Assembly: GCA_937921305.1 (NCBI GenBank)
Contig: CAKZSU010000002.1
Span: 1,711 to 65,710 of the forward strand
Origin: an uncultured Patescibacteria group bacterium
GTDB taxonomy: Bacteria > Patescibacteriota > Microgenomatia > UBA10105 > UBA927
DNA: 64,000 nt
Direction: 5' to 3'
In this document: piece by piece, positions 25,317 to 60,661 of the stretch
How positions within the stretch are numbered: the stretch's first letter is position 1
How the letters are laid out: each line of letters opens with the position of its first letter
Notes under the pieces: generated by a model
Told to the model about the DNA's origin: nothing
What the model saw: the letters and a program-made list of their open reading frames with translations, nothing else
The model's database searches: none
Program-made: the position numbers and the translations under genes

Positions 25317-27200
25317 ATGAGACTATTATTCATCACCATTGTCTTCATCCTCGGGTTGTTTATTCGATTATTTTTTGTTCCAAATCCTGGCTTTGAAGCA
25401 GATATCGCATTTTGGAAAGGATGGGGACTCGCGGCCGCTGACAATGGCGGACTGTGGGCAATACTTAACACAAATAATAATTACCCTACGCTATTTGTGT
25501 ACACGCTTGGCGCGATGGTTCATCTGTATCGTCTCCTCGGAGGCGAGCCTCACAATGTCCATTCATACTGGATGAATACGAATCTTCGATTTCTGTTTGT
25601 CTCAAAACTCCCCTCGATCCTCGCGGATGTTGGAATCGCGGGAATTATTCTCTATGTCGGCAAACGATTTAACCACCTCTTTTCATACACTTTTGTGAAT
25701 CAGAAACAGAGACAAAAACAAAAGAACCCTATCACCGCGCTTCTTGAATCTCAATGGCTCTTTCCTTTTCTCGCCGCACTGTATTTGCTCAACCCTGTAT
25801 CAATCATGGACGGCTCGTGGTGGGGGCAAGTAGATAGTCTTGGCGTTGCATACTTTCTCCTCGTTGTGATCGCCATCTTACATAAACGGATGATGCTCAC
25901 AGGAGCGCTGTTTATATTCGCGATGATGACAAAACTTCAAAATATGATTTATGGACCACTCTTGTTTGTGTTCATATGGCATACATTCGGTGTTCGCGCG
26001 ATGACAAAAACAATCGTCGGAGCGATCATCGCATTTTTTGGATTGAATATCGAATTTTTTCTCTCAAAAAACATGCACCTCGTCATAGGCTCGCTTATCA
26101 ATAATTATGATTACTTCCCGTATATGTCGTTGCACGCGTATAACCCGTGGTGGATTATTTCTGAAGGAAACGGCATGGGCGTGTCTGACAAATTTCTGGT
26201 TATTGGGATACTAAACGCAAAAACCGTGGGTACCATCATCTTCGCATCGTGCTACCTTGTTGCTGTCCTCGCGATAATTCTACCAACATTGCTCCGCATG
26301 AAGCAAAGAACTCCGAAAAATCAAACAGACGCTGACGAACGACAATCATTCTTTTGTTTTATTCTTGGCCTCTGCCTTGTGAATCTTGCGTTTTTCTTAT
26401 TTCTCACCCAATCACATGAACGATACGCCTTCCCCTTTTTTGGATTCAGTTTGCTCCTCGCGCCATTTCTTTCTCATCAACGCAAAATCGTCTTTCTTGT
26501 GTTGTATTGCGTATTTTCCTTCGTTTATTTTCTTAATCTCCACACCGCCTTCGCGCACAATTATCCAGAAAACGTCTTTCAATGGCTTCGATTTCTCGCT
26601 TCGTCCAGCTACACGAATCTTTTATCTTTCATAAATATAGCGATCTTTGCCATATTCATACTTCTCTTTGCAAACGACTTCACAAAGCACACCCTAGGAA
26701 TTGGTGTGATCGTATGTATTGGATTACTTCTCTTTGGAAATCATTCATATCTTCTTAGACAACCCATACATCTCTCCTCGATTACTCCATATCAAAGTTG
26801 GCAAGCGTATGGGGCGCGACAAACAAACATGCCTGTGTCTTCCTCTGGGTCAAATCCAAAGAGCTGGACGTTTCTCTCGACGCAATATGCATTCTTCCGA
26901 AAAGGCATTGGAACACACGCTAATAGCGCAATCTCATATGACATTGGAAAGAAATTCTCAATATTTCGAACAGACTATGGCATTGACACAAACGCAGGAA
27001 CTCAAGCATCCGCAATCTTCGAAATCTGGGGAGACGATAAGTTGCTCTTTCAGTCAGATGTCATGAGGCGATTCGACATGCCAAAACATGTAGTCATTAC
27101 TGTCAAGGGGATAAAGACACTCACACTTATCACGCGAGAAGCAAAAGACGGAAATACCGATGATCACACAAATTGGTTGAATCCTAAACTATATAGATAA
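25317..27200 (+). CDS. polytopic GT-C-like membrane protein with C-terminal NPCBM-like carbohydrate-binding domain
   Basis: N-terminal ~520 aa are multi-TM, with GFEADIAFWKGW after TM1. The C-terminal ~110 aa (GIGTHANSAISYDIGKKFSIFRTDYGIDTNAG...FEIWGDDKLLFQSDVM...VITVKGIKTLTLITREAKDGNTDDHTNWLNPKL) follow the NPCBM/F5-8-like pattern. Confidence 0.55.
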   Translation: MRLLFITIVFILGLFIRLFFVPNPGFEADIAFWKGWGLAAADNGGLWAILNTNNNYPTLFVYTLGAMVHLYRLLGGEPHNVHSYWMNTNLRFLFVSKLPSILADVGIAGIILYVGKRFNHLFSYTFVNQKQRQKQKNPITALLESQWLFPFLAALYLLNPVSIMDGSWWGQVDSLGVAYFLLVVIAILHKRMMLTGALFIFAMMTKLQNMIYGPLLFVFIWHTFGVRAMTKTIVGAIIAFFGLNIEFFLSKNMHLVIGSLINNYDYFPYMSLHAYNPWWIISEGNGMGVSDKFLVIGILNAKTVGTIIFASCYLVAVLAIILPTLLRMKQRTPKNQTDADERQSFFCFILGLCLVNLAFFLFLTQSHERYAFPFFGFSLLLAPFLSHQRKIVFLVLYCVFSFVYFLNLHTAFAHNYPENVFQWLRFLASSSYTNLLSFINIAIFAIFILLFANDFTKHTLGIGVIVCIGLLLFGNHSYLLRQPIHLSSITPYQSWQAYGARQTNMPVSSSGSNPKSWTFLSTQYAFFRKGIGTHANSAISYDIGKKFSIFRTDYGIDTNAGTQASAIFEIWGDDKLLFQSDVMRRFDMPKHVVITVKGIKTLTLITREAKDGNTDDHTNWLNPKLYR

Positions 27201-29712: not shown

Positions 29713-30006
29713 TTGCTAAACATTCCTCTTGACAACTCCGTAAAAATTCGGTTTCATAATAGTATGAAGAAAAAACCTGTCCTAAAAAAGAAACCGCAAG
29801 CAAAATCATCTTCAACGGTAAAAAAAATTGCGAAAAAATCCGATACAACGAATAAACGAGAAGACATTCATATTATTCTCATTCGAAGCTGGGCATTCCT
29901 CGTGTTGTTTGCCTTCATGCTTGGCATAGGCGTGATCGTAGGAAATTATATTAATGCCCAAATGAACGGCTACCCCACGGTCGCTGGTGCTTCGACTTCC
30001 CGATAA
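29713..30006 (+). CDS. small lysine-rich membrane protein, hypothetical
   Basis: K-rich N-terminus followed by one TM helix. Confidence 0.3.
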   Translation: MLNIPLDNSVKIRFHNSMKKKPVLKKKPQAKSSSTVKKIAKKSDTTNKREDIHIILIRSWAFLVLFAFMLGIGVIVGNYINAQMNGYPTVAGASTSR

Positions 30007-30043
30007 TTTCCCCTCTCAAAACATGCTATAATATCTGCAATAC

Positions 30044-30114
30044 GGGCTCGTAGTATACCGGTAGAACGTCTCCATGGCATGGAGAAGGAAGGGGTTCAAT
30101 TCCCCTCGAGTCCA
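30044..30114 (+). tRNA. tRNA-Ala (anticodon GGC)
   Basis: Hand-folded cloverleaf. Acceptor stem GGGCTCG/CGAGTCC with a G3:U70 pair (alanine identity). Anticodon stem TCTCC/GGAGA with loop ATGGCAT. T-arm AGGGG-TTCAATT-CCCCT. The D-arm is irregular. No encoded CCA. Confidence 0.55.
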
Positions 30115-30244
30115 CCCCTCCTCAATCCTACATTTAGATAGCGCGAAACCCGTCTACAAACTTCATCGCGGAACACACATTGCAAAGATAGTAATCAATT
30201 GTGATGAAGAAGCAATAATCTTATGGTAGAATAATAATTGCTTT

Positions 30245-30317
30245 GGGCCTGTAGCACAGTTGGTAATGCGCCGCATTCGCATTGCGGAGATCAGCGGTTC
30301 GAATCCGCTCAGGTCCA
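30245..30317 (+). tRNA. tRNA-Ala (anticodon CGC)
   Basis: Acceptor stem GGGCCTG/CAGGTCC with G3:U70. Anticodon stem CCGCA/TGCGG with loop TTCGCAT. T-arm AGCGG-TTCGAAT-CCGCT. Confidence 0.75.
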
Positions 30318-30322
30318 CTAAC

Positions 30323-31429
30323 TTACTTTAGGTACGCCCCCGGATTAATCACCGGAGCGCCATTGACTCGGACTTCAAAATGCAAGTGAATCCCCGTTGA
30401 TCTCCCTGTTGACCCCATCTTTCCAATCACTTGCCCCTGAGAAACTTTGTCACCAACTTTCACATACATTTCCGAAAGATGCGCGTAGAGCGTGGACAAC
30501 CCATCGCCATGATCGATAATGATATGCCGCCCATAATCATACCGAAGGGACGCAACATAGACAACCGTTCCATCCCCAGCAGCGACAATCGGCGGAGCAA
30601 CTGGATTCGCTATATCATAAGCCTTGTGGTACCAAATAGGATATTGGGTAATTGTTCCGCTTGTTGGCCAGATGAATCGACCAGACCCGCCAGTAGTTAC
30701 CGGTGCTTGCGGAGACGCGAAACGCGGAGCAGTTTGTTGTGGAGGAGGCGGAGCTTTTGGCATAACGCCATCGGGAACGATCAGGATTTTCCCAACCGTC
30801 AATCCAAAGGTGTCAAGATCGGTAAATTCATTAAAAATCCAGTTCGCGATCTTTTGCGGATCAGTTCGATATCGCTTGGCAATGCTATAAATCGTTTCCC
30901 CTTCTCTTACTTTATGAACAATCCCTGTCACAGGAGGAATTTTCAATGTTTGTCCAATAGAAAGATTTGTCCCGGTCATATTGTTTGCCCATTGAATGGT
31001 CTCGACAGAAATGCCATATTTTTGCGCGATACTTGATAGTGTGTCTCCCTGTTGCACCGTATATTCTTCAATCACATCTCTAGGTTTGTCCGAGCGATCC
31101 GTCCGCACACCATATTCCGAAAAATCAAGCGACGTCGCAACAGCAGAAGGAGGCGTAAAAGAAGCCAAATCAGATTGCGATGTCAACCCGGGATAGGTAT
31201 CTGCCAAAATCGGCGCGGCAAGAATGCCAACGGCAAACAATACAATAACGGAAAAATGCAAAAATGGCTTTTGATACATTCCTCGCCGAGCCATAAGGAT
31301 ATCCACAACCGCGTCTTTCTGCTCTTCAAACCATTTCGAAAATAGTCGAAGCCGACGATCAAAATAATAGATCAACCCTCGTCTCCAAAGAGAGATATCA
31401 TCAAGAAACAAACGAATACGCTTCTTCAT
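30323..31429 (-). CDS. LysM-domain M23 family metallo-endopeptidase
   Basis: Two LysM repeats (QGDTLSSIAQKYGISVETIQWAN; EGETIYSIAKRYRTDPQKIANW). C-terminal M23 motifs HxxxD (HHGDG) and GSTG...HLHFE. Confidence 0.85.
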   Translation of the reverse strand: MKKRIRLFLDDISLWRRGLIYYFDRRLRLFSKWFEEQKDAVVDILMARRGMYQKPFLHFSVIVLFAVGILAAPILADTYPGLTSQSDLASFTPPSAVATSLDFSEYGVRTDRSDKPRDVIEEYTVQQGDTLSSIAQKYGISVETIQWANNMTGTNLSIGQTLKIPPVTGIVHKVREGETIYSIAKRYRTDPQKIANWIFNEFTDLDTFGLTVGKILIVPDGVMPKAPPPPQQTAPRFASPQAPVTTGGSGRFIWPTSGTITQYPIWYHKAYDIANPVAPPIVAAGDGTVVYVASLRYDYGRHIIIDHGDGLSTLYAHLSEMYVKVGDKVSQGQVIGKMGSTGRSTGIHLHFEVRVNGAPVINPGAYLK

Positions 31430-31478
31430 GATCCTTGAAGGGTATCAAAGAAGAGGAGGAAAAGCAAATTTTTTTCGA

Positions 31479-31506
31479 TTGACAAATCATTAAGCATGTG
31501 TATAAT
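31479..31506 (+). promoter_or_regulatory. near-consensus sigma70-type promoter (TTGACA-N16-TATAAT)
   Basis: TTGACA at 31479-84 and TATAAT at 31501-06. An AAGGAGGA RBS lies ~7 nt before the ATG at 31565. Confidence 0.5.
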
Positions 31507-31564
31507 ATTTTCAAATATTCCTTGATGGAATGTTTCATGAAGCGTAAAGAAGAAGGAGGATGCC

Positions 31565-33781
31565 ATGGCAAATCCCAAAGAAGCTCCAAAAAGAAATCCT
31601 ATCACAACAGAAGATCAAAAAATAATCCCGAATAACTGGAAAAATAACTGGAAAAGCCTTGTTGCGTCAGCACTGTTTGCTATATCTTCTGCTGTAGTTC
31701 CTGACAGACAAGCATCCCCTTCTTCTGTTGACGACAGAGCATTAGAAATATTAAACGGACAACGACAACGAAGAATATCGCTTGTTGTGGATCAACGTGG
31801 TGATATATTTTCTCGAATTTCCCTCCCTGAATCTTCACGATCGGAGGAGCAGCAGAGAAACCTTGGAGCATTTGTGGAGCTTCCATCGATAGGAACTTTT
31901 ACAAAAGAAGAACAAAAACGCATACAAGCGCTGGTGTCAAATCGATTTTCTAATGCAACAACCGGAAGATATCTTATTCCTACTGCGGATGAGTCAGAAC
32001 TCTCCTCTCTTCTTTCGGATGAATCACCATTTGCTCAATATATTCATAAGATAATGCAGATAAGAAGATCAATAGAAGGAGAAGTGCAACTACTACTACT
32101 CATCCAGAAAGAAAATAGCCAGAAAGAAAATAGCGTTAAACAAGTAAGTATTATCTTCCAACCGATGGGTTCGCTTTCTCTTGGAGAGAGGATGGTAAAT
32201 CCGGAAAATCCAACATGGATTTTTCCAGGGAAAGATGGTGGATTACGAGTGATTGATGCGGGAAATTTACCTCAAGGAGCATCTCTTGATGCTATTACAG
32301 ACAGGCGTGATCTTCTAACTCTTCAAAGGAGCGCAAGAGCGCAAGGCTATGAAATTGATCTTTCGTCATATAACGGGGGATTTGTTCCTGTAATAAGAGA
32401 TGAGAAAGGACGGGTGATTCGCGTATTCGGCGAGAAAGGACCGGTCACATTTGAGCAACCATATATAAGACATACTGGAGGAGATCCAGTGAATATTCGA
32501 GATAATCCTTCCACATCTGGGAATCGTGTTGGATCATTCACATCAACAGGAGAGCCACTACGCGTGATAACTCCTGAAGAATTTCAAGAATACAGAGAAG
32601 CGATTCCTGATCAGACACGACTTTCGATAGAAAATAATAGAGTAACTTATAATGATGGTCGATATACATGGATTGCTGTATCATACGAAGGAAAAATACG
32701 ATGGGTTGCCCAGTTTCCTCAAATCCAACCATTTTCTCAACTCGAAGGAGTTTCGATAAGACAAGAAGCAATAAAAGAGTCATTCTCAAATAATCCAAAT
32801 ATCCTTGCTCGTCAACTTCGCCTCCCTGAAGGACAGTATAATTTTTATACAAATGAAGATTATGGACCGATAGAAATGTTACGAGATCAAAATGGAAAAA
32901 TTTGGGCAGTAAAAAAAGAAGGACAAGCAAACTGGCAAACAGCCGAAATGGTCGCAAGAGAATTAGGATTAGATACGCATGGAACCATAGAAATACCCGG
33001 ACTAGTAATTCAAAGACGAGAAGAAAAATTATACTATTATTTTTATAGTGATCTCTTGAATCTCTTTCTTAAAGAAGAAAGACCAAGCGGCAATAGACGA
33101 GGCATTGTTGCCATGTTTGACCATGAAACAGGAGATTGGTTAAATTTTCAATATGCTCAATATCGGATGATTGGTGTCCAAAACCTTGGAATCGTTAATA
33201 ATCCCCCATTGGGAATCGGATATAGTCGAGCTGCAGAACGATTTTTCTCTTTATATGGCGTAGGTGGAGGAGTAAGAAAAGTAGATCTTTGGATTTCCCC
33301 AGAATTGCATATTACAAAAATATTGAGGGTATATTGGTTAGAAAATCCCGGTCCAAGAACACCATGGACGCTTGAAAATCTTGCAATGAGAACCACAGTC
33401 ATTGTCCTTGACGGAACATTTAATGGTCAACAAATACAAGTATATGACAGTGAAATTTCTGAGGTTGAAAAATATTTACAAACAGTAGGTGTCCTTATCC
33501 GCAGTAGAATTAATATTGATCCAAGGTCGGAAAAAAATTTTCCAAAAACAACTCTATCCATATGGGATTTCATGGGGAGAGGAGAAAGATTGAATCTCCC
33601 ATGGGAAGAATATCAACGAAGACTAAACGATTTTTATCGTCAACATGGAGTGATGTTTGTCCAACTTGAAAGAATAGATACCAGAGAAAATCCTTATTAT
33701 CCAGGTCATTTTCGATTTCAAGTAGTGCCGTTCCCACCTGCGTTTCCTCCACATCCAATATATCCTGAAGATCCTAAATAA
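31565..33781 (+). CDS. large hypothetical exported protein (738 aa)
   Basis: One N-terminal hydrophobic segment (LVASALFAISSAVVP). No recognisable catalytic motifs. Proline-rich C-terminal tail. Confidence 0.4.
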   Translation: MANPKEAPKRNPITTEDQKIIPNNWKNNWKSLVASALFAISSAVVPDRQASPSSVDDRALEILNGQRQRRISLVVDQRGDIFSRISLPESSRSEEQQRNLGAFVELPSIGTFTKEEQKRIQALVSNRFSNATTGRYLIPTADESELSSLLSDESPFAQYIHKIMQIRRSIEGEVQLLLLIQKENSQKENSVKQVSIIFQPMGSLSLGERMVNPENPTWIFPGKDGGLRVIDAGNLPQGASLDAITDRRDLLTLQRSARAQGYEIDLSSYNGGFVPVIRDEKGRVIRVFGEKGPVTFEQPYIRHTGGDPVNIRDNPSTSGNRVGSFTSTGEPLRVITPEEFQEYREAIPDQTRLSIENNRVTYNDGRYTWIAVSYEGKIRWVAQFPQIQPFSQLEGVSIRQEAIKESFSNNPNILARQLRLPEGQYNFYTNEDYGPIEMLRDQNGKIWAVKKEGQANWQTAEMVARELGLDTHGTIEIPGLVIQRREEKLYYYFYSDLLNLFLKEERPSGNRRGIVAMFDHETGDWLNFQYAQYRMIGVQNLGIVNNPPLGIGYSRAAERFFSLYGVGGGVRKVDLWISPELHITKILRVYWLENPGPRTPWTLENLAMRTTVIVLDGTFNGQQIQVYDSEISEVEKYLQTVGVLIRSRINIDPRSEKNFPKTTLSIWDFMGRGERLNLPWEEYQRRLNDFYRQHGVMFVQLERIDTRENPYYPGHFRFQVVPFPPAFPPHPIYPEDPK

Positions 33782-34186
33782 AAATATACAAATTTTCTTC
33801 TTATTGTCTTTGTAAGATACAAAATATCTCTACTTATAGAGTTCTACCATTTTGCTAAACTTTTTGATCTGATACATAATCATGACATATAATAAAGTTC
33901 TCGAATCGTTTAGCTTTTTCATTTACATAAAAAACAGCGTTTGTATATTACATTTCCTTTATTAAGATTTTATCTTACCGCAAAGATTGCATCATACCGA
34001 TTATTTTTTTATCATATTAGTTGTAAAAAGCAGTAAACAACGATGTTAAAGTAACATGTAATAAATACCATCACTCCATCCTTTTTTTAAATGAATTTAT
34101 TGAGAAGATATATTCTAATAAAAAGATGCAAAAAGAAATATATTGTATTAAAAATAATAATCGTTTCATAAAATAGATAATAACTT

Positions 34187-34960
34187 ATGCATGTAAAAAC
34201 ATTTTTTGATTCCATCTGGAAACATAAAATATCTATTATTCTTTTTGCACTATTTTTTTCTCTGTTTGTTTCTATAGTAATCTACAGCATTAGGGCAAAT
34301 CCTAGTATAAAAAATACTATAAAAAAATATACTACTCCTAAAAAAACATATCGAGAACAAGAATTACTTCAAAAAATGAAAACGTTCGCGTTTCGAAACG
34401 GAGAACCTGCTCTTGCAAGAGGTATTACCGGTGGAGCAAAAGATTACGGTGGCAACACAATAAAAGGCGTACTTGCGGATATTACAACCAATCCAATACC
34501 TATCAAAACAAAAGATGGAAAAGAAATTGCAAAATCAATCATGACGTTTACTATTTTCTATATCAATGATTATAACGAGCTTGAAAAAATATATTTATCT
34601 GCAGCCATTCAATTTCCTGATGGATCATATTATCTGATAAGCGATAATCCAATTCGATTACCAAATGATACCGTAAATGATGAATATTATTACGATAAAA
34701 TTGGCACACCAGTATTCGCGCTCTTTCGAACAAATACAACATTAGGGCTAGAAACACTTAAACAACAAGGAAAATCTAAAGAAGAGCTTGATGCTGCAAA
34801 ACGAATTTTTTCATTTATTCAAACATATGAATCAAGCTGGAAGGAAGAACTAGACACGCTTGTTCTAGGAGGAAGAAAAGGAGCGTTGGAATTTCTCTTT
34901 CCTATCGCCTATAGCGATGATAGCTTTCGTCTTGAATATCAAGTATTTACTATTCCTTGA
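34187..34960 (+). CDS. hypothetical membrane-anchored protein (257 aa)
   Basis: N-terminal TM (ISIILFALFFSLFVSIVIYSI). Remainder hydrophilic. Confidence 0.35.
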   Translation: MHVKTFFDSIWKHKISIILFALFFSLFVSIVIYSIRANPSIKNTIKKYTTPKKTYREQELLQKMKTFAFRNGEPALARGITGGAKDYGGNTIKGVLADITTNPIPIKTKDGKEIAKSIMTFTIFYINDYNELEKIYLSAAIQFPDGSYYLISDNPIRLPNDTVNDEYYYDKIGTPVFALFRTNTTLGLETLKQQGKSKEELDAAKRIFSFIQTYESSWKEELDTLVLGGRKGALEFLFPIAYSDDSFRLEYQVFTIP

Positions 34961-36672
34961 CGAATATGAACTACAATGTTTATTCAAAATACTATCATTT
35001 TTTTATTGTCTGCATTTTTATCATTTTATTCTCTAGCAATGGCAAACATATTGTGATGGCTCAAGGGTATTCTACATCATGGTGTCCAAGTGGATGGTGC
35101 ACTGGGGAAAATAGTGGATTATGTTATAAAATGTGTGGAGTAGTTTTTGGAGTATGTCAGCCGACAGAAGGAGAATGGAGATCCTGGACATGTGGTGGAC
35201 ATCAATGTCTCTCTGGTCCTATTTTAGGATGCGGCAGCAATGTATCGTGCTCTAGTAGTGGAGTTACTATAGATAAGTGCGGTAACTGTCCTGGATCGCA
35301 ATATCGAGAATGCGGAACTTATGGAGCTGGATGTTATAATAATGTTAATCAATATGGATGCGGAACAGGATATAGAGGGGTAGCAAATCTAGGAGCATGT
35401 GGGAAAATTATAGAGGGTAGTTGCGCCGAACTTTCTTATCAGCCTATGGAGTGCTGTAGTCCAAACCCAAATCCAAATCCAAGTCCGAATCCAAGTCCAA
35501 GTCCGAATCCAACTTCTCCACCTCCGCCTGGAACATTTCAAGCAAGAGCGAGAAGAATTCCGTACGCAAGCATTGGAAACTGTAGCAATCCATCGGCAAC
35601 CCCCCTCTCTTCTTCCCTTCGCTTTGCCCCAGGAGTTCCTTCTCAAAACTCCGATGGAACATCCTATGCCTCGTGGTCTGTTACTCCTGGGACCTACACC
35701 ATCCTTCCAACGATTACGGAAGAAAATGGTTCTTCGTATGTATTACAAACCGTTTGTGTGTCGCGAGATGGAGGTTCGTTTTTTCCTTCTACGGTTGCTC
35801 AGACTGTAGGAAGCGGACAGACGATCGTGTTCGATCTTCTCTATACCTATGCAACATCGTGGATGCTGGTCGATGGAGGGGATGTAATTGCCTGTCAAGA
35901 TCTTTCTTCTGTTGTTCCTCCTTCTGCTGTTCCCGCGCCATATTTTATACTTGCGTCTGATGGAGGGTATCCTGGGGTAGCGTTGTATGGGACATGGTAT
36001 AGTTTTGATGAGTCACGATTGTATCGAACAGGGAGAGAATCTATTTCTCAGACCGGATGGATTGCGCAGTCTTCAAATCATCCATTGTGCAATACACAGA
36101 AGGTGAATTTTTACAAGGAGTTTGCGCACGCTGTTGATGTGAAAGCGATGACGCCGAAGAGAAATCTTCTTGGAGAACGAACAAAGGATGATTTTCCCGA
36201 CGCAGCGACCTATGTGATTGGAGATCTCACGCTTGGAGGATCTGACGACACGGCATGGGCGCTGTCTCAGAATGAGAAAAAAACGATTGTTGTGGATGGT
36301 AATGTAACCATTCGACGGAATATTACCTATCCTAACGGCGGGTTCTTTGGACTGATTGTGAATGGTGATATCACCATTAATTCCACTGTAGGATCGAATC
36401 CTTCAACAAGAACGCCAAGTCTTCGCGGATTCTATGCCACGAGTCCACAAGGAAGGTTAAACACGGGGAGAAGCACTATTACTGGAAAAGAGAAACTAGT
36501 CATTCTTGGGACCGTTGCGGTGGGGGGGGTAAATCTTCAGCGGAACTTGGATACGATTGGGATGAATCACACAACACCTGGAGAAGAATTCATCTATGAT
36601 ACTCACCTTATCATGAATCTCCCAGAGGCATTCCTTGAAACCAACATCGTTTGGCAAGAAGTCCCCCCGTGA
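34957..36672 (+). CDS. secreted cysteine-rich protein with PNPS-repeat linker and large C-terminal domain
   Basis: Signal/TM at the N-terminus. About 150 aa with more than 25 Cys. Low-complexity PNPNPNPSPNPSPSPNP linker. A ~380 aa C-terminal domain rich in G/T/S/N. TTG start in the track; the ATG at 34966 is more likely. Confidence 0.4.
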   Translation: MTNMNYNVYSKYYHFFIVCIFIILFSSNGKHIVMAQGYSTSWCPSGWCTGENSGLCYKMCGVVFGVCQPTEGEWRSWTCGGHQCLSGPILGCGSNVSCSSSGVTIDKCGNCPGSQYRECGTYGAGCYNNVNQYGCGTGYRGVANLGACGKIIEGSCAELSYQPMECCSPNPNPNPSPNPSPSPNPTSPPPPGTFQARARRIPYASIGNCSNPSATPLSSSLRFAPGVPSQNSDGTSYASWSVTPGTYTILPTITEENGSSYVLQTVCVSRDGGSFFPSTVAQTVGSGQTIVFDLLYTYATSWMLVDGGDVIACQDLSSVVPPSAVPAPYFILASDGGYPGVALYGTWYSFDESRLYRTGRESISQTGWIAQSSNHPLCNTQKVNFYKEFAHAVDVKAMTPKRNLLGERTKDDFPDAATYVIGDLTLGGSDDTAWALSQNEKKTIVVDGNVTIRRNITYPNGGFFGLIVNGDITINSTVGSNPSTRTPSLRGFYATSPQGRLNTGRSTITGKEKLVILGTVAVGGVNLQRNLDTIGMNHTTPGEEFIYDTHLIMNLPEAFLETNIVWQEVPP

Positions 36673-36736
36673 GGAAATAGGTACGCCTTTTAGTTCCTAA
36701 CTTTCGAAACAAAGAAAAATTCCACAAGCAACAATC

Positions 36737-38299
36737 TCATTCTCCCTTGGACAACGATTCGAGGAAATCGTCATTTTTTTCTGTTTTACTCAAACGGTCA
36801 ATCAACATAACTGTTCGCTCGTCATCGGAAAGCATAGACAGCATATGGCGAAGCGTGGTGACCCGTTTCATTTTTTCTTCTCCGAGCAAAAGCTCGTCGT
36901 GCCGCGTGCCAGACTTAGCGATATCAATCGCCGGGAAAATTCGCCGTTCTTGCAACGAACGAGACAAATGAAGTTCCATGTTTCCCGTCCCCTTAAATTC
37001 TTCATAAATCAAATCATCCATTCTGCTCCCTGTGTCAACAAGCGCCGTGCCGATGACCGTCAACGATCCTCCAGGTTGCGGTTGACCATCAGGGCCAGTG
37101 ATCTCCACGCAACGCGCCGCACCCAAAAACCGTTTCGCTGGATACAACGCAGCAGGGTCAAATCCGCCAGACAATGTTCGCCCTGATGGATTCACGACAA
37201 GATTATACGCTCGCGCAAGGCGCGTGATCGAATCAAGAAGCACCACAACGTGCTTCCCCATCTCTACCAATCGCTTTGCGCGATCCAACGCAATCTCCGC
37301 AATTCGTGTTTGTTCTTGCGGTGATTGATCAAAATTACTTGCTAATACTTCTCCCTTTACACTTCGCGAGATATCAGTTACTTCTTCTGGTCGCTCTCCA
37401 ATAAGTGTTGCCATAAGATGAACATCAGGAAAGTTTTGAGCTATGCCAGCAGCAATTTCTTTCATGATCGTCGTCTTTCCTGCTTTTGGCGGAGAGACGA
37501 TTAACCCTCGCTGTCCAAATCCTATTGGCGCGATTAAATCAATGATGCGCGTGGATAACGGAAGTCGCCCTGTTTCCAACCGCAACAGTCTATTCGGATA
37601 AATCGGCGTGAGATCTTCAAATTTTGGACGATTCGCCAATTCCTCGACAGGAATATCATTCACTTTTTCAACCTTCAAAAGTCCCCAATATCGTTCATTT
37701 TCTTTCGGCCGTCTCGCCTGTCCTTCAACCATATCACCATTTCGAAGGAGGAATCGACGAATTTGCGATTGAGAAATGTAAATATCGCGATCGCTTGGCG
37801 TAAATTTTGGTCGAAGAAATCCATGTCCTTCTGGCATCATATCCAAAATTCCTCGAACAGTTTCTGTTGGCACATTGATATCTTGAATTTGTCCATTTTC
37901 TGTCTGTACGACATCGCGACGCATAAGCGTACGACGAGGTTGATACCGAGGACGATATCCTATCTGCGAAGAAGCAGATCCATGCCCGTTACCATTCCAT
38001 CGTTGATGAGATTGCTGAACCGCTGGAGGTTGCAAAGGGCTTTCAAAAGAAAGATTTGAAGAATCAGCCGATAACGAAGAGCTAGGCAATCCCGAGGCAT
38101 TGGACATTTCAGTAGCATCAGACGGCGTTCCCACAAGATCATCCACAGATGGTTCAGGCGACGAGGAAGAAACAGAAAGTGTTTCATCAATTCTTTGAGA
38201 AGAAACATCGGTTGATTCAGTAGATGATAAAGACGGAACATTCACATCTTCATCAGTGGCTTTCGATTTAGATAGTTTTCTTGAAGCGCGAAATGCCAT
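36737..38299 (-). CDS. rho: transcription termination factor Rho with serine-rich N-terminal insertion
   Basis: Walker A GLIVSPPKAGKTT. The Q-loop/R-loop region and the C-terminal ...FPAIDIAKSGTRHDELLL are near-identical to canonical Rho. The first ~110 aa are a low-complexity S/T/Q/N-rich insertion. Confidence 0.9.
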   Translation of the reverse strand: MAFRASRKLSKSKATDEDVNVPSLSSTESTDVSSQRIDETLSVSSSSPEPSVDDLVGTPSDATEMSNASGLPSSSLSADSSNLSFESPLQPPAVQQSHQRWNGNGHGSASSQIGYRPRYQPRRTLMRRDVVQTENGQIQDINVPTETVRGILDMMPEGHGFLRPKFTPSDRDIYISQSQIRRFLLRNGDMVEGQARRPKENERYWGLLKVEKVNDIPVEELANRPKFEDLTPIYPNRLLRLETGRLPLSTRIIDLIAPIGFGQRGLIVSPPKAGKTTIMKEIAAGIAQNFPDVHLMATLIGERPEEVTDISRSVKGEVLASNFDQSPQEQTRIAEIALDRAKRLVEMGKHVVVLLDSITRLARAYNLVVNPSGRTLSGGFDPAALYPAKRFLGAARCVEITGPDGQPQPGGSLTVIGTALVDTGSRMDDLIYEEFKGTGNMELHLSRSLQERRIFPAIDIAKSGTRHDELLLGEEKMKRVTTLRHMLSMLSDDERTVMLIDRLSKTEKNDDFLESLSKGE

Positions 38300-38500
38300 A
38301 GGAAGGAATACTTGCTGATTTATATCATCTATGAGACATATTTATGAAATACGACAAATACATGTTAGTAAGATGTGTAAGCGATAGATTTCCTTTTGGA
38401 GGATATCATACATATTACATCATAAACCAGTAAAAATGTCAAGGAAGAAACTATTTCGGAAGCGTTAACATTGGTTAAGAAATAGAAAATTATTCGTTAA

Positions 38501-55540: not shown

Positions 55541-55659
55541 CCTCGGCGATGACCTATCTTCCAATAGCTCGCGAGAGCTACGTATTGTTGGCGCTGAACC
55601 GTTTTACTTCTGAGTTCGGAATGGGATCAGGTAGTTCCAGTTCGCTCAAATCACCGAGA
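55541..55659 (-). rRNA. rrf: 5S ribosomal RNA
   Basis: Reverse complement contains the conserved GATCCCATTCCGAACTCAGAAG loop C/helix III region. Ends pair (TCTCGGTG.../...CGCCGAGG). A hairpin plus T-tract follows on the minus strand. Confidence 0.75.
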
Positions 55660-55771
55660 CAATTCTGTTTTTTTGAACCGCATTGAATATGAGTCAATTG
55701 CCTAAAAAGGGGCAATGTGCATCCGCATTTTTCTGCATACGGTAATCGCCGTCACGGAAAAGGACCCTTTA

Positions 55772-58980
<3,209 letters not shown>

Positions 58981-59171
58981 AGAACAAAAGGCTTTTGTTC
59001 CGGCGACTCTTTTTTATGGCATAAAAAAAGAGGTGAATGTCATTACCCCTTTTCATGCAACTACTCATTCAATGTTTCAATGTTTTTCCCTATTCACTTG
59101 TTAAAGTGCAACACTGTACTCACGAAGCAATACCTACGATGACATTGCTTCATCATCGTCTGTATCGCATC

Positions 59172-59244
59172 GTAATGGAGTGGACCTGGGCGGAGTCGAA
59201 CCGCCTACCTCTTCATTGCAAATGAAGCGTTCAACCAGGTAAAC
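59172..59244 (-). tRNA. tRNA-Ala (anticodon UGC), upstream of 23S
   Basis: Acceptor stem GGGCCTG/CAGGTCC with G3:U70. Anticodon stem CTTCA/TGAAG with loop TTTGCAA. T-arm GGCGG-TTCGACT-CCGCC. No encoded CCA. Confidence 0.75.
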
Positions 59245-59284
59245 TTCAGGCCCTTCGACTTCGCTCAGGATACTGTCCCAACAC

Positions 59285-59446: not shown

Positions 59447-60661
59447 TTACCAAGCGTCCAACGCTTTTGCAAGTATCTGAATAGCGCGTTTTAGTTTGGG
59501 AATTTCTAACACATAGGCAAGACGAACTTCATTCTTTCCCTTCCCTTCAGAAAGATAAAACCCATTTGCCGGCGCAAGCATAACGGTTTCTTGTTCCAAT
59601 CGAAAATCTGTCAACAACCACTGGCAAAACATTTCAGCGTTTTCCACAGGAAGAGACACAACCGTATAGAACGCCCCTTCTGGTTTATGAATCCCAACGC
59701 CGTTTATCGATCTTAATCCTTCATACACAACATTTCTCCTCTGTTCATACTCTTCTCGAACGCGTTGCATATATGAATCGGGAACATTCACAAGTTTCGC
59801 CGCCATCTTTTGATCCACAAATCCAGACGATAATCGTCCTTGAGCAATGCGCAGCACACCATCAAGCAATTCTTTATTAATAGAAATAAGCGCACCAAGC
59901 CTTGCACCACATAAGCTATACCGCTTCGACACGCTATCAAGAACAATAATCTGCTCGGGAAGTTCGTTCGCGTAGGACAAAAGTGAGACATGCGTTCTAC
60001 CATCATATACAAACTCCCGATACACCTCGTCAGAAAGCAAAAAGAGATCTCGGTCTTTCGCCAAAGAAACCAGCATCGTAAGTTCGTCTTTTCGATATAC
60101 TGTGCCTGTCGGATTATTTGGATTGCACAGAAGAATACCTTTCGTTGTTTCATCGATATATCGTTCAATCGTTGAGCGATCCGGCAAATGAAATCCATTT
60201 TTTAACGATGTTTGGATTGGGACAAGACGAACATCATACAAAAGCGCGATTGACTGATAATTCGCGTAAAATGGTTCAAACACAAGCAATGAATCGCCTG
60301 GATTACACACGGCAACCATAGCCATGCCGATTGCTTCAGACCCTCCCGATGTGACTTGAATATGGTGTTCTGTAATAAACGGATATCCGCACCGCTGATA
60401 GTACCACGCAAGCGCAGAGAGAAATTCAGGATCTCCTTTAGATTGGGCGTAGGAAATCGTTGAAATATCCCACTGTCGCAAAACAGTAAGCATCACTTCG
60501 GGTGTTTTGATGTCAGGATCGCCGATATTCAAGCGATACACGGTAACTCCTTGTTTCTTCGCTTGTTCCGCAAACGGAATTAACTTCCGTATCGGAGACG
60601 CTGGAATGGTTGATAATCGATGAGAAAGATTCATATGACGATATAGTCGTGCTAGAATCAA
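59447..60661 (-). CDS. class I/II PLP-dependent aminotransferase (aspartate aminotransferase family)
   Basis: Motifs NPNNPTG, SDEVY and SVSKRYSLCGARLG (PLP lysine). 404 aa. The true start is probably the internal ATG (MNLSHRL). Confidence 0.8.
   Translation of the reverse strand: MILARLYRHMNLSHRLSTIPASPIRKLIPFAEQAKKQGVTVYRLNIGDPDIKTPEVMLTVLRQWDISTISYAQSKGDPEFLSALAWYYQRCGYPFITEHHIQVTSGGSEAIGMAMVAVCNPGDSLLVFEPFYANYQSIALLYDVRLVPIQTSLKNGFHLPDRSTIERYIDETTKGILLCNPNNPTGTVYRKDELTMLVSLAKDRDLFLLSDEVYREFVYDGRTHVSLLSYANELPEQIIVLDSVSKRYSLCGARLGALISINKELLDGVLRIAQGRLSSGFVDQKMAAKLVNVPDSYMQRVREEYEQRRNVVYEGLRSINGVGIHKPEGAFYTVVSLPVENAEMFCQWLLTDFRLEQETVMLAPANGFYLSEGKGKNEVRLAYVLEIPKLKRAIQILAKALDAW

Follow-up and report, generated by a model that had tools for sequence, protein, structure and literature searches.

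Bacteria of the Candidate Phyla Radiation (CPR, or Patescibacteria) are believed to live in attachment to other cells, and to our knowledge few of the surface proteins that mediate such contacts have been identified. In a Gracilibacterium (CPR), an extracellular protein with PTD repeats is hypervariable and has been proposed to act in attachment (PMC6851277). Bacterial surface-layer (S-layer) proteins are reported to have arisen independently many times, and new classes have been described from Patescibacteria on criteria that include large size, the presence of a signal peptide and that of an anchoring domain (bioRxiv 10.1101/2024.05.28.596244). Here we describe gene A, an open reading frame (ORF) of 738 amino acids (aa) in a 64-kb stretch of contig CAKZSU010000002.1 from an uncultured Patescibacteria group bacterium (the window, meaning the whole stretch analysed). 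With a probability of roughly one half, its product is an abundant, exported, non-enzymatic and wall-associated protein with a binding or structural role, which heads an acquired surface module of three genes (A, B and C) and is under selection by partners, hosts or phages.

The locus was compared with four described or recognizable systems. As in Gracilibacterium, one exported protein forms a local hot spot of variation in an otherwise nearly invariant genome (PMC6851277); the Gracilibacterium protein, however, undergoes synonymous shuffling of repeats with conservation of the amino acids, whereas A shows dispersed, mostly nonsynonymous point substitutions without repeats. With the S-layer proteins of monoderm bacteria A shares a signal-peptide-like N-terminus, the lack of Cys, a mass of 84 kDa, a weakly acidic isoelectric point (pI), a very strong promoter and ribosome-binding site, poor conservation and strain variability, but it has no recognized anchor and no evident tandem repeats, and the gene is absent from the nearest relatives. 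With wall-targeting proteins carrying an SH3b domain (Pfam SH3_3, PF08239) it shares a segment in which aa 309–335 match the first half of the profile and which closes, by residue 385, with a pair of W-rich strands (a likeness judged by eye), and in its exported homologue P0006 the core domain of A occurs together with a bona fide SH3_3 domain; A differs in scoring 17.5 bits against a cut-off of 27, in that the domain would have to carry an insertion of 30–40 residues, and in lacking a known catalytic partner domain (M23, CHAP, amidase or NlpC/P60). Lastly, the Cys-rich secreted family with GGYPG and IVNGDIT motifs to which the product of ORF C belongs, and which has weak similarity to DUF7305, is part of the cassette of A and is often accompanied by an overlapping 5' gene for a small membrane-anchored protein, as in B/C (L087, L096 and L101), but A has no sequence relation to it, and A and B are absent from 30 other loci of this family. 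Variable proteins exported by a CPR bacterium are already known as a kind, and A is a genuine orphan gene of that kind.

Expression signals of gene A

The window was represented by 44 ORFs (with starts at, for example, 4320 and 17062 and, on the reverse strand, 38501, 52946 and 62922), whose start codons are those of the longest ORF and hence possibly imprecise. Gene A and its upstream signals are located as follows:

31565..33781, forward strand: ORF A, 738 aa, ATG start, product of 84.5 kDa with pI 6.4, no Cys and 1.5% Met, orphan family
31479..31506, forward strand: promoter of sigma-70 type, TTGACA at 31479-31484, 16-nt spacer, TATAAT at 31501-31506
31460-31476: A/T-rich stretch immediately 5' of the promoter
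31553..31560, forward strand: Shine-Dalgarno (SD) site AAGGAGGA, 5 nt between GGAGG and the ATG

Of the original prediction, the near-consensus promoter and a ribosome-binding site among the best in the window were borne out, and strong expression of the gene is probable. The ORF is real and intact in three strains, and its promoter is the sole 12/12 match to TTGACA-N15-19-TATAAT when both strands of the 64 kb are considered (0.09 expected by chance; at least one match in 8 of 100 shuffled sequences), with a predicted mRNA leader of about 50 nt. The SD site ranks among the top three of the 44 ORFs, the only three with a match of at least 7 nt, while 33 have no SD match of at least 4 nt. A TAnnnT box 4–12 nt before the start codon was present in 18 of the 44 ORFs as against 14% of random positions, which suggests that leaderless mRNAs are widespread in the window. 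Among many possibly leaderless neighbours, ORF A is conspicuous as a gene of the classical leadered type with strong signals.

The promoter region and SD site of ORF A are unchanged between strains (the promoter being the same in contigs L001 and L085), and near-consensus promoters also precede the genes of both distant homologues described below, with TTGACA-N16-TACAAT in L002 (P0005) and TTGACA-N16-TATAAC in L004 (P0006). All three lineages thus carry a promoter matching at 11–12 of 12 positions, with a 16-nt spacer, no more than 90 nt before the start codon, and matches of at least 11/12 are scarce, at 1–3 per locus of 21–64 kb. Because near-consensus promoters with an equal spacer occur in three of three lineages, the family seems to have conserved strong transcription.

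Variation between strains

The window and two near-identical contigs (L001 and L085) were compared over 21.6 kb. Gene A, which occupies 10% of this length, contains 25 of the 46 variable sites (binomial p=1.5e-13), corresponding to 11.3 variable sites per kb against 1.1 in its neighbours, or about tenfold. The M23, B, rho and DUF2298 genes are identical at the nucleotide level among the three strains. Among the 24 changed codons of A, 21 changes are nonsynonymous and three synonymous, many of them charge swaps (K/E, D/N, D/R, E/K), as compared with three nonsynonymous and four synonymous changes in seven flanking genes pooled (Fisher p=0.029). One 3-codon indel distinguishes the strains in A and leaves the frame intact in all three (738/735 aa). 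The non-coding DNA on either side of A is almost invariant (no variable site in 135 nt and one in 405 nt) and, given that it shows no excess, relaxed constraint alone does not explain the hot spot; the pattern fits diversifying selection on A as an exposed protein. Variation in ORF C is of another type, consisting mainly of indels in a PNPS linker; the gene as a whole has 60 indel columns among the three strains.

Hypermutation by a diversity-generating retroelement was considered as a source of the changes in A and rejected, as these are dispersed over aa 58–717 and are not adenine-specific, and no template/variable repeat pair was found in 30000-38500. The neighbouring genes scanned gave no match to a reverse transcriptase.

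Predicted parts of protein A

The protein was divided into the following segments:

31565..31699, forward strand: N-terminal export signal, a charged n-region of 30 aa, then an h-region of 14–15 aa (LVASALFAISSAVV), then SSA
32104..32133, forward strand: perfect tandem duplication of 15 nt encoding QKENS-QKENS, also present in strain variant P0001
32477..32719, forward strand: possible SH3b-like segment, aa 305–385, with an insertion
32777..33154, forward strand: conserved core domain, aa ~405–530, with motifs YGPxxML(R/K)D, WQTAE and NLFLRExR, common to all three lineages
33728..33778, forward strand: proline-rich C-terminal tail PFPPAFPPHPIYPEDPK, taken from the translation, not conserved in P0005

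The sole hydrophobic stretch of A (aa 31–45) is short and weak, with a best 19-residue Kyte-Doolittle (KD) value of 1.14; the h-region LVASALFAISSAVV comes after K27/K30, and SSA offers a possible -3/-1 site. The position of this segment is kept across homologues whose N-termini are otherwise dissimilar, with a comparable short hydrophobic segment in P0005 and a classical signal peptide in P0006. The single N-terminal hydrophobic anchor of the original prediction does exist as a segment, but it looks like the h-region of a signal peptide, which fits better than a membrane anchor. From hydropathy and the comparison of these three N-termini, A is very probably exported, as had been proposed. Lipobox prediction, also proposed at that stage, has no object in a protein devoid of Cys, and a lipoprotein is excluded for the same reason.

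The absence of a recognizable enzymatic motif likewise held up, searches of Pfam, NCBIfam, PDB sequences, PHROGs and PADLOC with A giving nothing above threshold. Specifically, A did not match peptidoglycan hydrolase profiles (M23, NlpC/P60, CHAP, amidase_2/3, GH25 and lytic transglycosylase), nor did it match S-layer anchors (SLH, CWB2 and the like) in Pfam or NCBIfam at E up to 1. The proline-rich tail is present as first noted, and the C-terminus (...VVPFPPAFPPHPIYPEDPK) has neither an LPXTG motif nor the hydrophobic tail of a sortase substrate. In size and composition A falls within the range of S-layer proteins (40–200 kDa, little Cys or Met, acidic pI), although these traits are nonspecific.

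The Pfam match of A to SH3_3 (E 0.0049) covers only positions 3–28 of the 54 in the profile. In a BLASTP comparison, the SH3b-like segment of A aligned with the bona fide SH3_3 domain of P0006 with E 4e-4, which speaks slightly in favour of the match; P0006 itself scored 27.5 bits against SH3_3 and P0005 gave no match. No SH3 proteins were found in a profile search of PDB sequences.

Relatives and structure of A

In the two protein collections searched, the family comprises the strain cluster P0001–P0003 (98% identical), P0005 and P0006, the last two being all that an exhaustive phmmer search added. P0005 (699 aa) shares 34% identity over aa 26–629 of A (E 5.6e-66), its C-terminal region diverging from that of A, while P0006 (469 aa) shares only aa 386–531 (E 1.1e-14). 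The core domain is a self-contained module; in P0006 it forms the C-terminus, after the signal peptide and the SH3_3 domain. A word-index search for homologues returned the 98% strain cluster alone, profile searches with alignment A1 (four sequences) and with core alignment A2 gave no new homologues, and neither did pattern scans based on A1 of GTDB genomes, JGI metagenomes and IMG/VR. The A family appears to be extremely rare, with three lineages among the proteins searched.

AlphaFold2 gave an unreliable model of full-length A from the four-sequence alignment (mean predicted local distance difference test, pLDDT, 42). The core was the sole part modelled with confidence (pLDDT 70.6, with blocks up to 90, and predicted template modelling score, pTM, 0.66), as two beta-beta-beta-beta-alpha units. 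In alignment A1 the acidic residues D441, D496 and E504 of the core are invariant, and no His is invariant across the four sequences. Foldseek searches of the A models against PDB and BFVD gave no match with E<0.01, the template modelling (TM) score being at most 0.26. A structure search had been put forward as a check for a common housekeeping fold, and none emerged in PDB or BFVD, which is a weak test. The two units of the core model are similar and its top match was PUR-alpha; an internal repeat was considered and rejected, the two halves showing no sequence similarity above that of shuffled sequences (z -0.3 to 0.3).

The A-B-C cassette

Gene A is followed on the same strand by two further genes:

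33782..34186, no strand assigned: A-B spacer, 405 nt, AT-rich, with promoter-like sites inside
34187..34960, forward strand: ORF B, 257 aa, strong N-terminal transmembrane segment, no family match
34957..36672, forward strand: ORF C, 571 aa, signal peptide, Cys-rich N-terminal domain (23 Cys), PNPS linker, conserved C-terminal domain

The last 4 nt of B are also the first of C, and the N-terminal hydrophobic segments of B and C are strong (KD 2.7 and 1.9), in agreement with the earlier description of a block of three exported proteins headed by A. The PNPS linker of C is encoded by repeats of 12 nt (35460-35513) and differs in length from strain to strain, and the C-terminal domain of C carries the GGYPG and IVNGDIT motifs. 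The A-B spacer gave no Rfam match, contains no ORF of more than 42 aa and forms no stable hairpin in 33775-33900; in view of its promoter-like sites, B-C may be transcribed separately from A. The equivalent spacer in L002 measures 80 nt.

The order A-B-C is kept in a second organism (L002/L003), with identities of 31–34% for A, 39% for B and 41–51% for C. There the P0005 gene is followed by a B homologue (249 aa, E 4e-59) and by a C homologue with 51% identity over the C-terminal 385 aa, which also has a Cys-rich N-terminal region. The flanks of this cassette are entirely different from those in the window (UvrD/AddB-type helicases, FemAB and a dTDP-sugar isomerase). Since gene order is kept despite the changed flanks, A, B and C probably work together.

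The C-terminal domain of C has 30 relatives in metagenome contigs. The 12 family members inspected all have an N-terminal signal peptide or membrane anchor, with 22–99 Cys. A gene for a small membrane-anchored protein overlaps the start of the C-family gene in the three loci named above. In L097 (1834-11959) the C-family gene is part of a type IV pilus gene cluster, with four N_methyl prepilin-like genes (GspG- and GspH-like) upstream of it and PilM (E 1e-38) and PilO-like genes downstream; directly 5' of it lies a gene for a 524-aa protein without Cys or Pfam match. The prepilin motif was not found in the window. A secreted protein of 1173 aa encoded at L061:15444-18965 (the same protein as at L099:5247-8768) contains 99 Cys in repeated modules separated by Pro/Thr linkers and ends in a C-terminal domain of the ORF C type; the protein encoded before it has two LysM domains and a hydrophobic segment near aa 205–220. 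At the 30 other C-family loci no homologues of A or B were detected, including by hmmsearch, and ten proteins encoded upstream of C-family genes had no Pfam match. The similarity of the C family to DUF7305 is below threshold (14.5–16.3 bits against a cut-off of 27, E 0.004–0.03, in two of three members) and can serve as a lead only. A literature search returned no paper mentioning DUF7305 and none linking Gottesmanbacteria with S-layers.

Genomic slot of the cassette

The cassette is bordered by two genes:

30323..31429, reverse strand: left flank, gene with two LysM domains and a Peptidase_M23 domain (E 5.7e-27 and 1.6e-32), divergent from A
36737..38299, reverse strand: right flank, rho, convergent with C

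The proteins closest to this Rho come from metagenome-assembled genomes of the Microgenomates group of CPR, the best sharing 72% identity over its full length (L005, labelled Woesebacteria) and the next-closest being labelled Gottesmanbacteria. This places the organism in a group of small genomes, as first supposed. In eight relatives (L005, L007, L008, L012, L013, L016, L017 and L027), rho is followed by the LysM/M23 gene within about 0–280 bp and there is no cassette; further out on both sides, gene order agrees with that of the window. As rho abuts the M23 gene in these eight, the 5.3-kb A-B-C block is a lineage-specific insertion, and the pairing of A with the M23 gene, the divergent LysM/M23 neighbour of the original prediction, is accidental. 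Conservation among relatives, which had been proposed as a test, gave a divided answer, the absence of A from eight close relatives being offset by the conservation of A-B-C in L002/L003.

GC content at third codon positions (GC3) is 0.24 in A and 0.20 in B against 0.40 +/- 0.06 in the window (z -2.8 and -3.5), the lowest values in the window, and ranges from 0.20 to 0.24 across the cassette. Such low values in A and B would be expected of genes acquired from elsewhere. Neither an integrase nor flanking repeats above chance were seen at the cassette. An alignment in which both cassette borders resembled the ancestral rho-M23 spacer suggested a target-site duplication, which was rejected, as local alignment scores were at chance level.

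Large inserts of different kinds occur at the slot between rho and the M23 gene, which makes it a hot spot. In five relatives of Gottesmanbacteria type it holds another insert (L010:11460-15873, L015:11602-16734, L019:11657-16747, L020:11605-15399 and L021:11200-15114), which encodes one protein of 984–1710 aa with a conserved N-terminus resembling a helix-turn-helix by eye (VTIGQAAKLLAVSKGSIRNWI...) and, after it, long stretches of collagen-like triplet repeats.

The wider neighbourhood encodes envelope glycan functions, with PMT_2/GT-C-like membrane proteins, NPCBM, DUF2298, GT2, DegT and an epimerase. A polytopic membrane protein of 627 aa (25317-27200) has a C-terminal NPCBM/NEW2 carbohydrate-binding domain (E 5e-31) and, from its position among PMT_2/GT-C-like and DUF2298 membrane proteins, its surroundings are predicted to be an envelope glycosylation neighbourhood.

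Further observations concern the flanking and RNA genes of the window. The window Rho has an N-terminal extension of ~125 aa rich in Ser, Pro, Asp and Glu, which is much less conserved than the remainder (90% identity to the L005 protein over residues 122–520). A promoter-like site, TTGACA-N17-TGTAAT, lies 5' of rho (38405-38442, reverse strand) and is kept in the closest relative (L005:9852). Tandem tRNA-Ala genes with GGC and CGC anticodons (30044-30318) adjoin the 3' end of the M23 gene, and a third tRNA-Ala (TGC) lies in the rRNA operon at 55541-59253 (reverse strand), which comprises tRNA-Ala(TGC), 23S and 5S in that order with no adjacent 16S gene, the next ORF being at 59447. The 23S match extends over 3209 nt against the 2925-nt model, with ~280 nt inserted, and no intron family matched at the Rfam gathering score.

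Discussion

Taken as a sequence of steps, the reading given at the outset would run as follows. The consensus promoter and strong SD site would ensure that A is transcribed and translated, and the product would be exported by the Sec pathway as an 84-kDa protein, free of Cys, non-lipidated and without a recognizable catalytic domain. A would be the first gene of a surface cassette that also encodes the membrane-anchored B and the secreted, Cys-rich C, and that entered one Microgenomates lineage at the junction of rho with the LysM/M23 gene. Outside the cell, A would be wall-associated and abundant, with a binding or structural role, probably acting together with B and C, and its exposure would subject it to pressure to vary from partners, hosts or phages. 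A surface theme recurs in the relatives, as one C-family member is found in a type IV pilus gene cluster and another after a LysM protein, and P0006 joins the core domain to SH3_3.

Several observations weigh against this reading. The n-region of A is unusually long and its h-region weak, and the SH3b-like match is sub-threshold and was not reproduced against PDB sequences. The ratio of nonsynonymous to synonymous substitution rates (dN/dS) in A is ~2, which is not significantly above 1 (binomial p=0.18), and relaxed constraint could contribute. The atypical codon composition of A is not what one would expect of a gene long adapted to high expression in this host. With A and B absent from the other C-family loci, their link to C is one of two lineages. 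As the full-length model is unreliable and the fold search covered PDB and BFVD only, a known fold or enzyme was possibly missed.

That last point bears on an alternative that we consider unlikely, in which A is a secreted enzyme degrading walls or glycans through a novel catalytic domain and is targeted by the SH3b-like segment to the peptidoglycan of the cell itself, of a host or of a prey. SH3b domains usually target lytic enzymes, P0006 joins a true SH3_3 to the core domain, the three invariant acidic residues of the core could be catalytic carboxylates, and the surroundings are envelope-related (M23, GT-C-type membrane proteins). Against this, A matches no hydrolase family in Pfam, NCBIfam, PDB sequences or PHROGs, its lack of Cys excludes cysteine peptidases, and the absence of an invariant His in the four-sequence alignment speaks against a conserved His-based metal site. 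Adjacency to the M23 gene lends no help, being an accident of insertion, and the fast change of surface charge fits a binding or antigenic role better.

Slightly less likely again is that A is an S-layer protein, or another major lattice-forming protein of the envelope. It would be secreted in large amounts, attach to the wall through the SH3b-like segment and make up the outermost layer, and B and C would serve it as anchoring or accessory partners. A signal peptide, little Cys and Met, and such a size and pI are classical traits of S-layer proteins, and A has a signal-peptide-like N-terminus, no Cys, low Met, 84.5 kDa and pI 6.4. The strong promoter and SD, with the promoter kept across homologues, the orphan sequence and the fast amino-acid change between strains would also be in keeping with an S-layer, as would the many independent origins reported for these proteins and the new classes reported in Patescibacteria (bioRxiv 10.1101/2024.05.28.596244). 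SLH, CWB2 and other known anchors, however, were not found in Pfam, repeated immunoglobulin-like or beta-sandwich domains are not evident, the gene is missing entirely from the closest relatives, and the foreign-looking codon composition suggests recent acquisition.

It is improbable that A is simply cargo that came with an islet acquired recently, now of little function in its host, under relaxed constraint and drifting to decay. The lineage-specific insertion, the atypical GC3, a nonsynonymous/synonymous ratio compatible with neutrality and the extreme rarity of the family all agree with such a history, but the frame is intact in three strains, the roughly tenfold substitution density of A is not shared by adjacent intergenic DNA, neither the promoter nor the SD differs between strains, the B genes of these strains are 100% identical, and the order A-B-C has been kept across divergence to 34% identity. 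An origin of A as a phage-derived, polymorphic-toxin or anti-phage defence protein, which the variable slot with its different large insert in related genomes and the differing C-terminal regions of A and P0005 might suggest, is largely refuted and very improbable given that A had no PHROG match with E<0.007, no PADLOC match, no tblastn match in 50,697 phage records, none in IMG/VR and no toxin domain, that the cassette lacks a visible integrase or flanking repeat, and that B is conserved (39%) while the C-terminus of A diverges, which is the opposite of a toxin-immunity pair.

The reading of A as an exported, wall-associated binding or structural protein can be extended into a fuller model, which we regard as speculative and unlikely to hold in all its parts. 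In it, A-B-C would be a horizontally mobile surface module governing partner contact or phage evasion in a bacterium of episymbiont type, A being the abundant, antigenically variable, S-layer-like outer component with an undescribed fold, attached to the wall through a degenerate SH3b domain, B the membrane tether, and C a Cys-rich adhesin related to proteins of type IV pilus clusters.

The locus provides a concrete and cheaply testable candidate for a surface protein through which a CPR bacterium contacts other cells: an orphan gene whose expression signals are the best of the 64 kb, carried by a cassette at a variable slot and accounting for over half of the strain variation in 21.6 kb. If A proved not to be expressed, it would be one more orphan gene in a variable islet; if it is abundant, it would represent a new class of surface or S-layer protein together with a new domain of ~125 residues.

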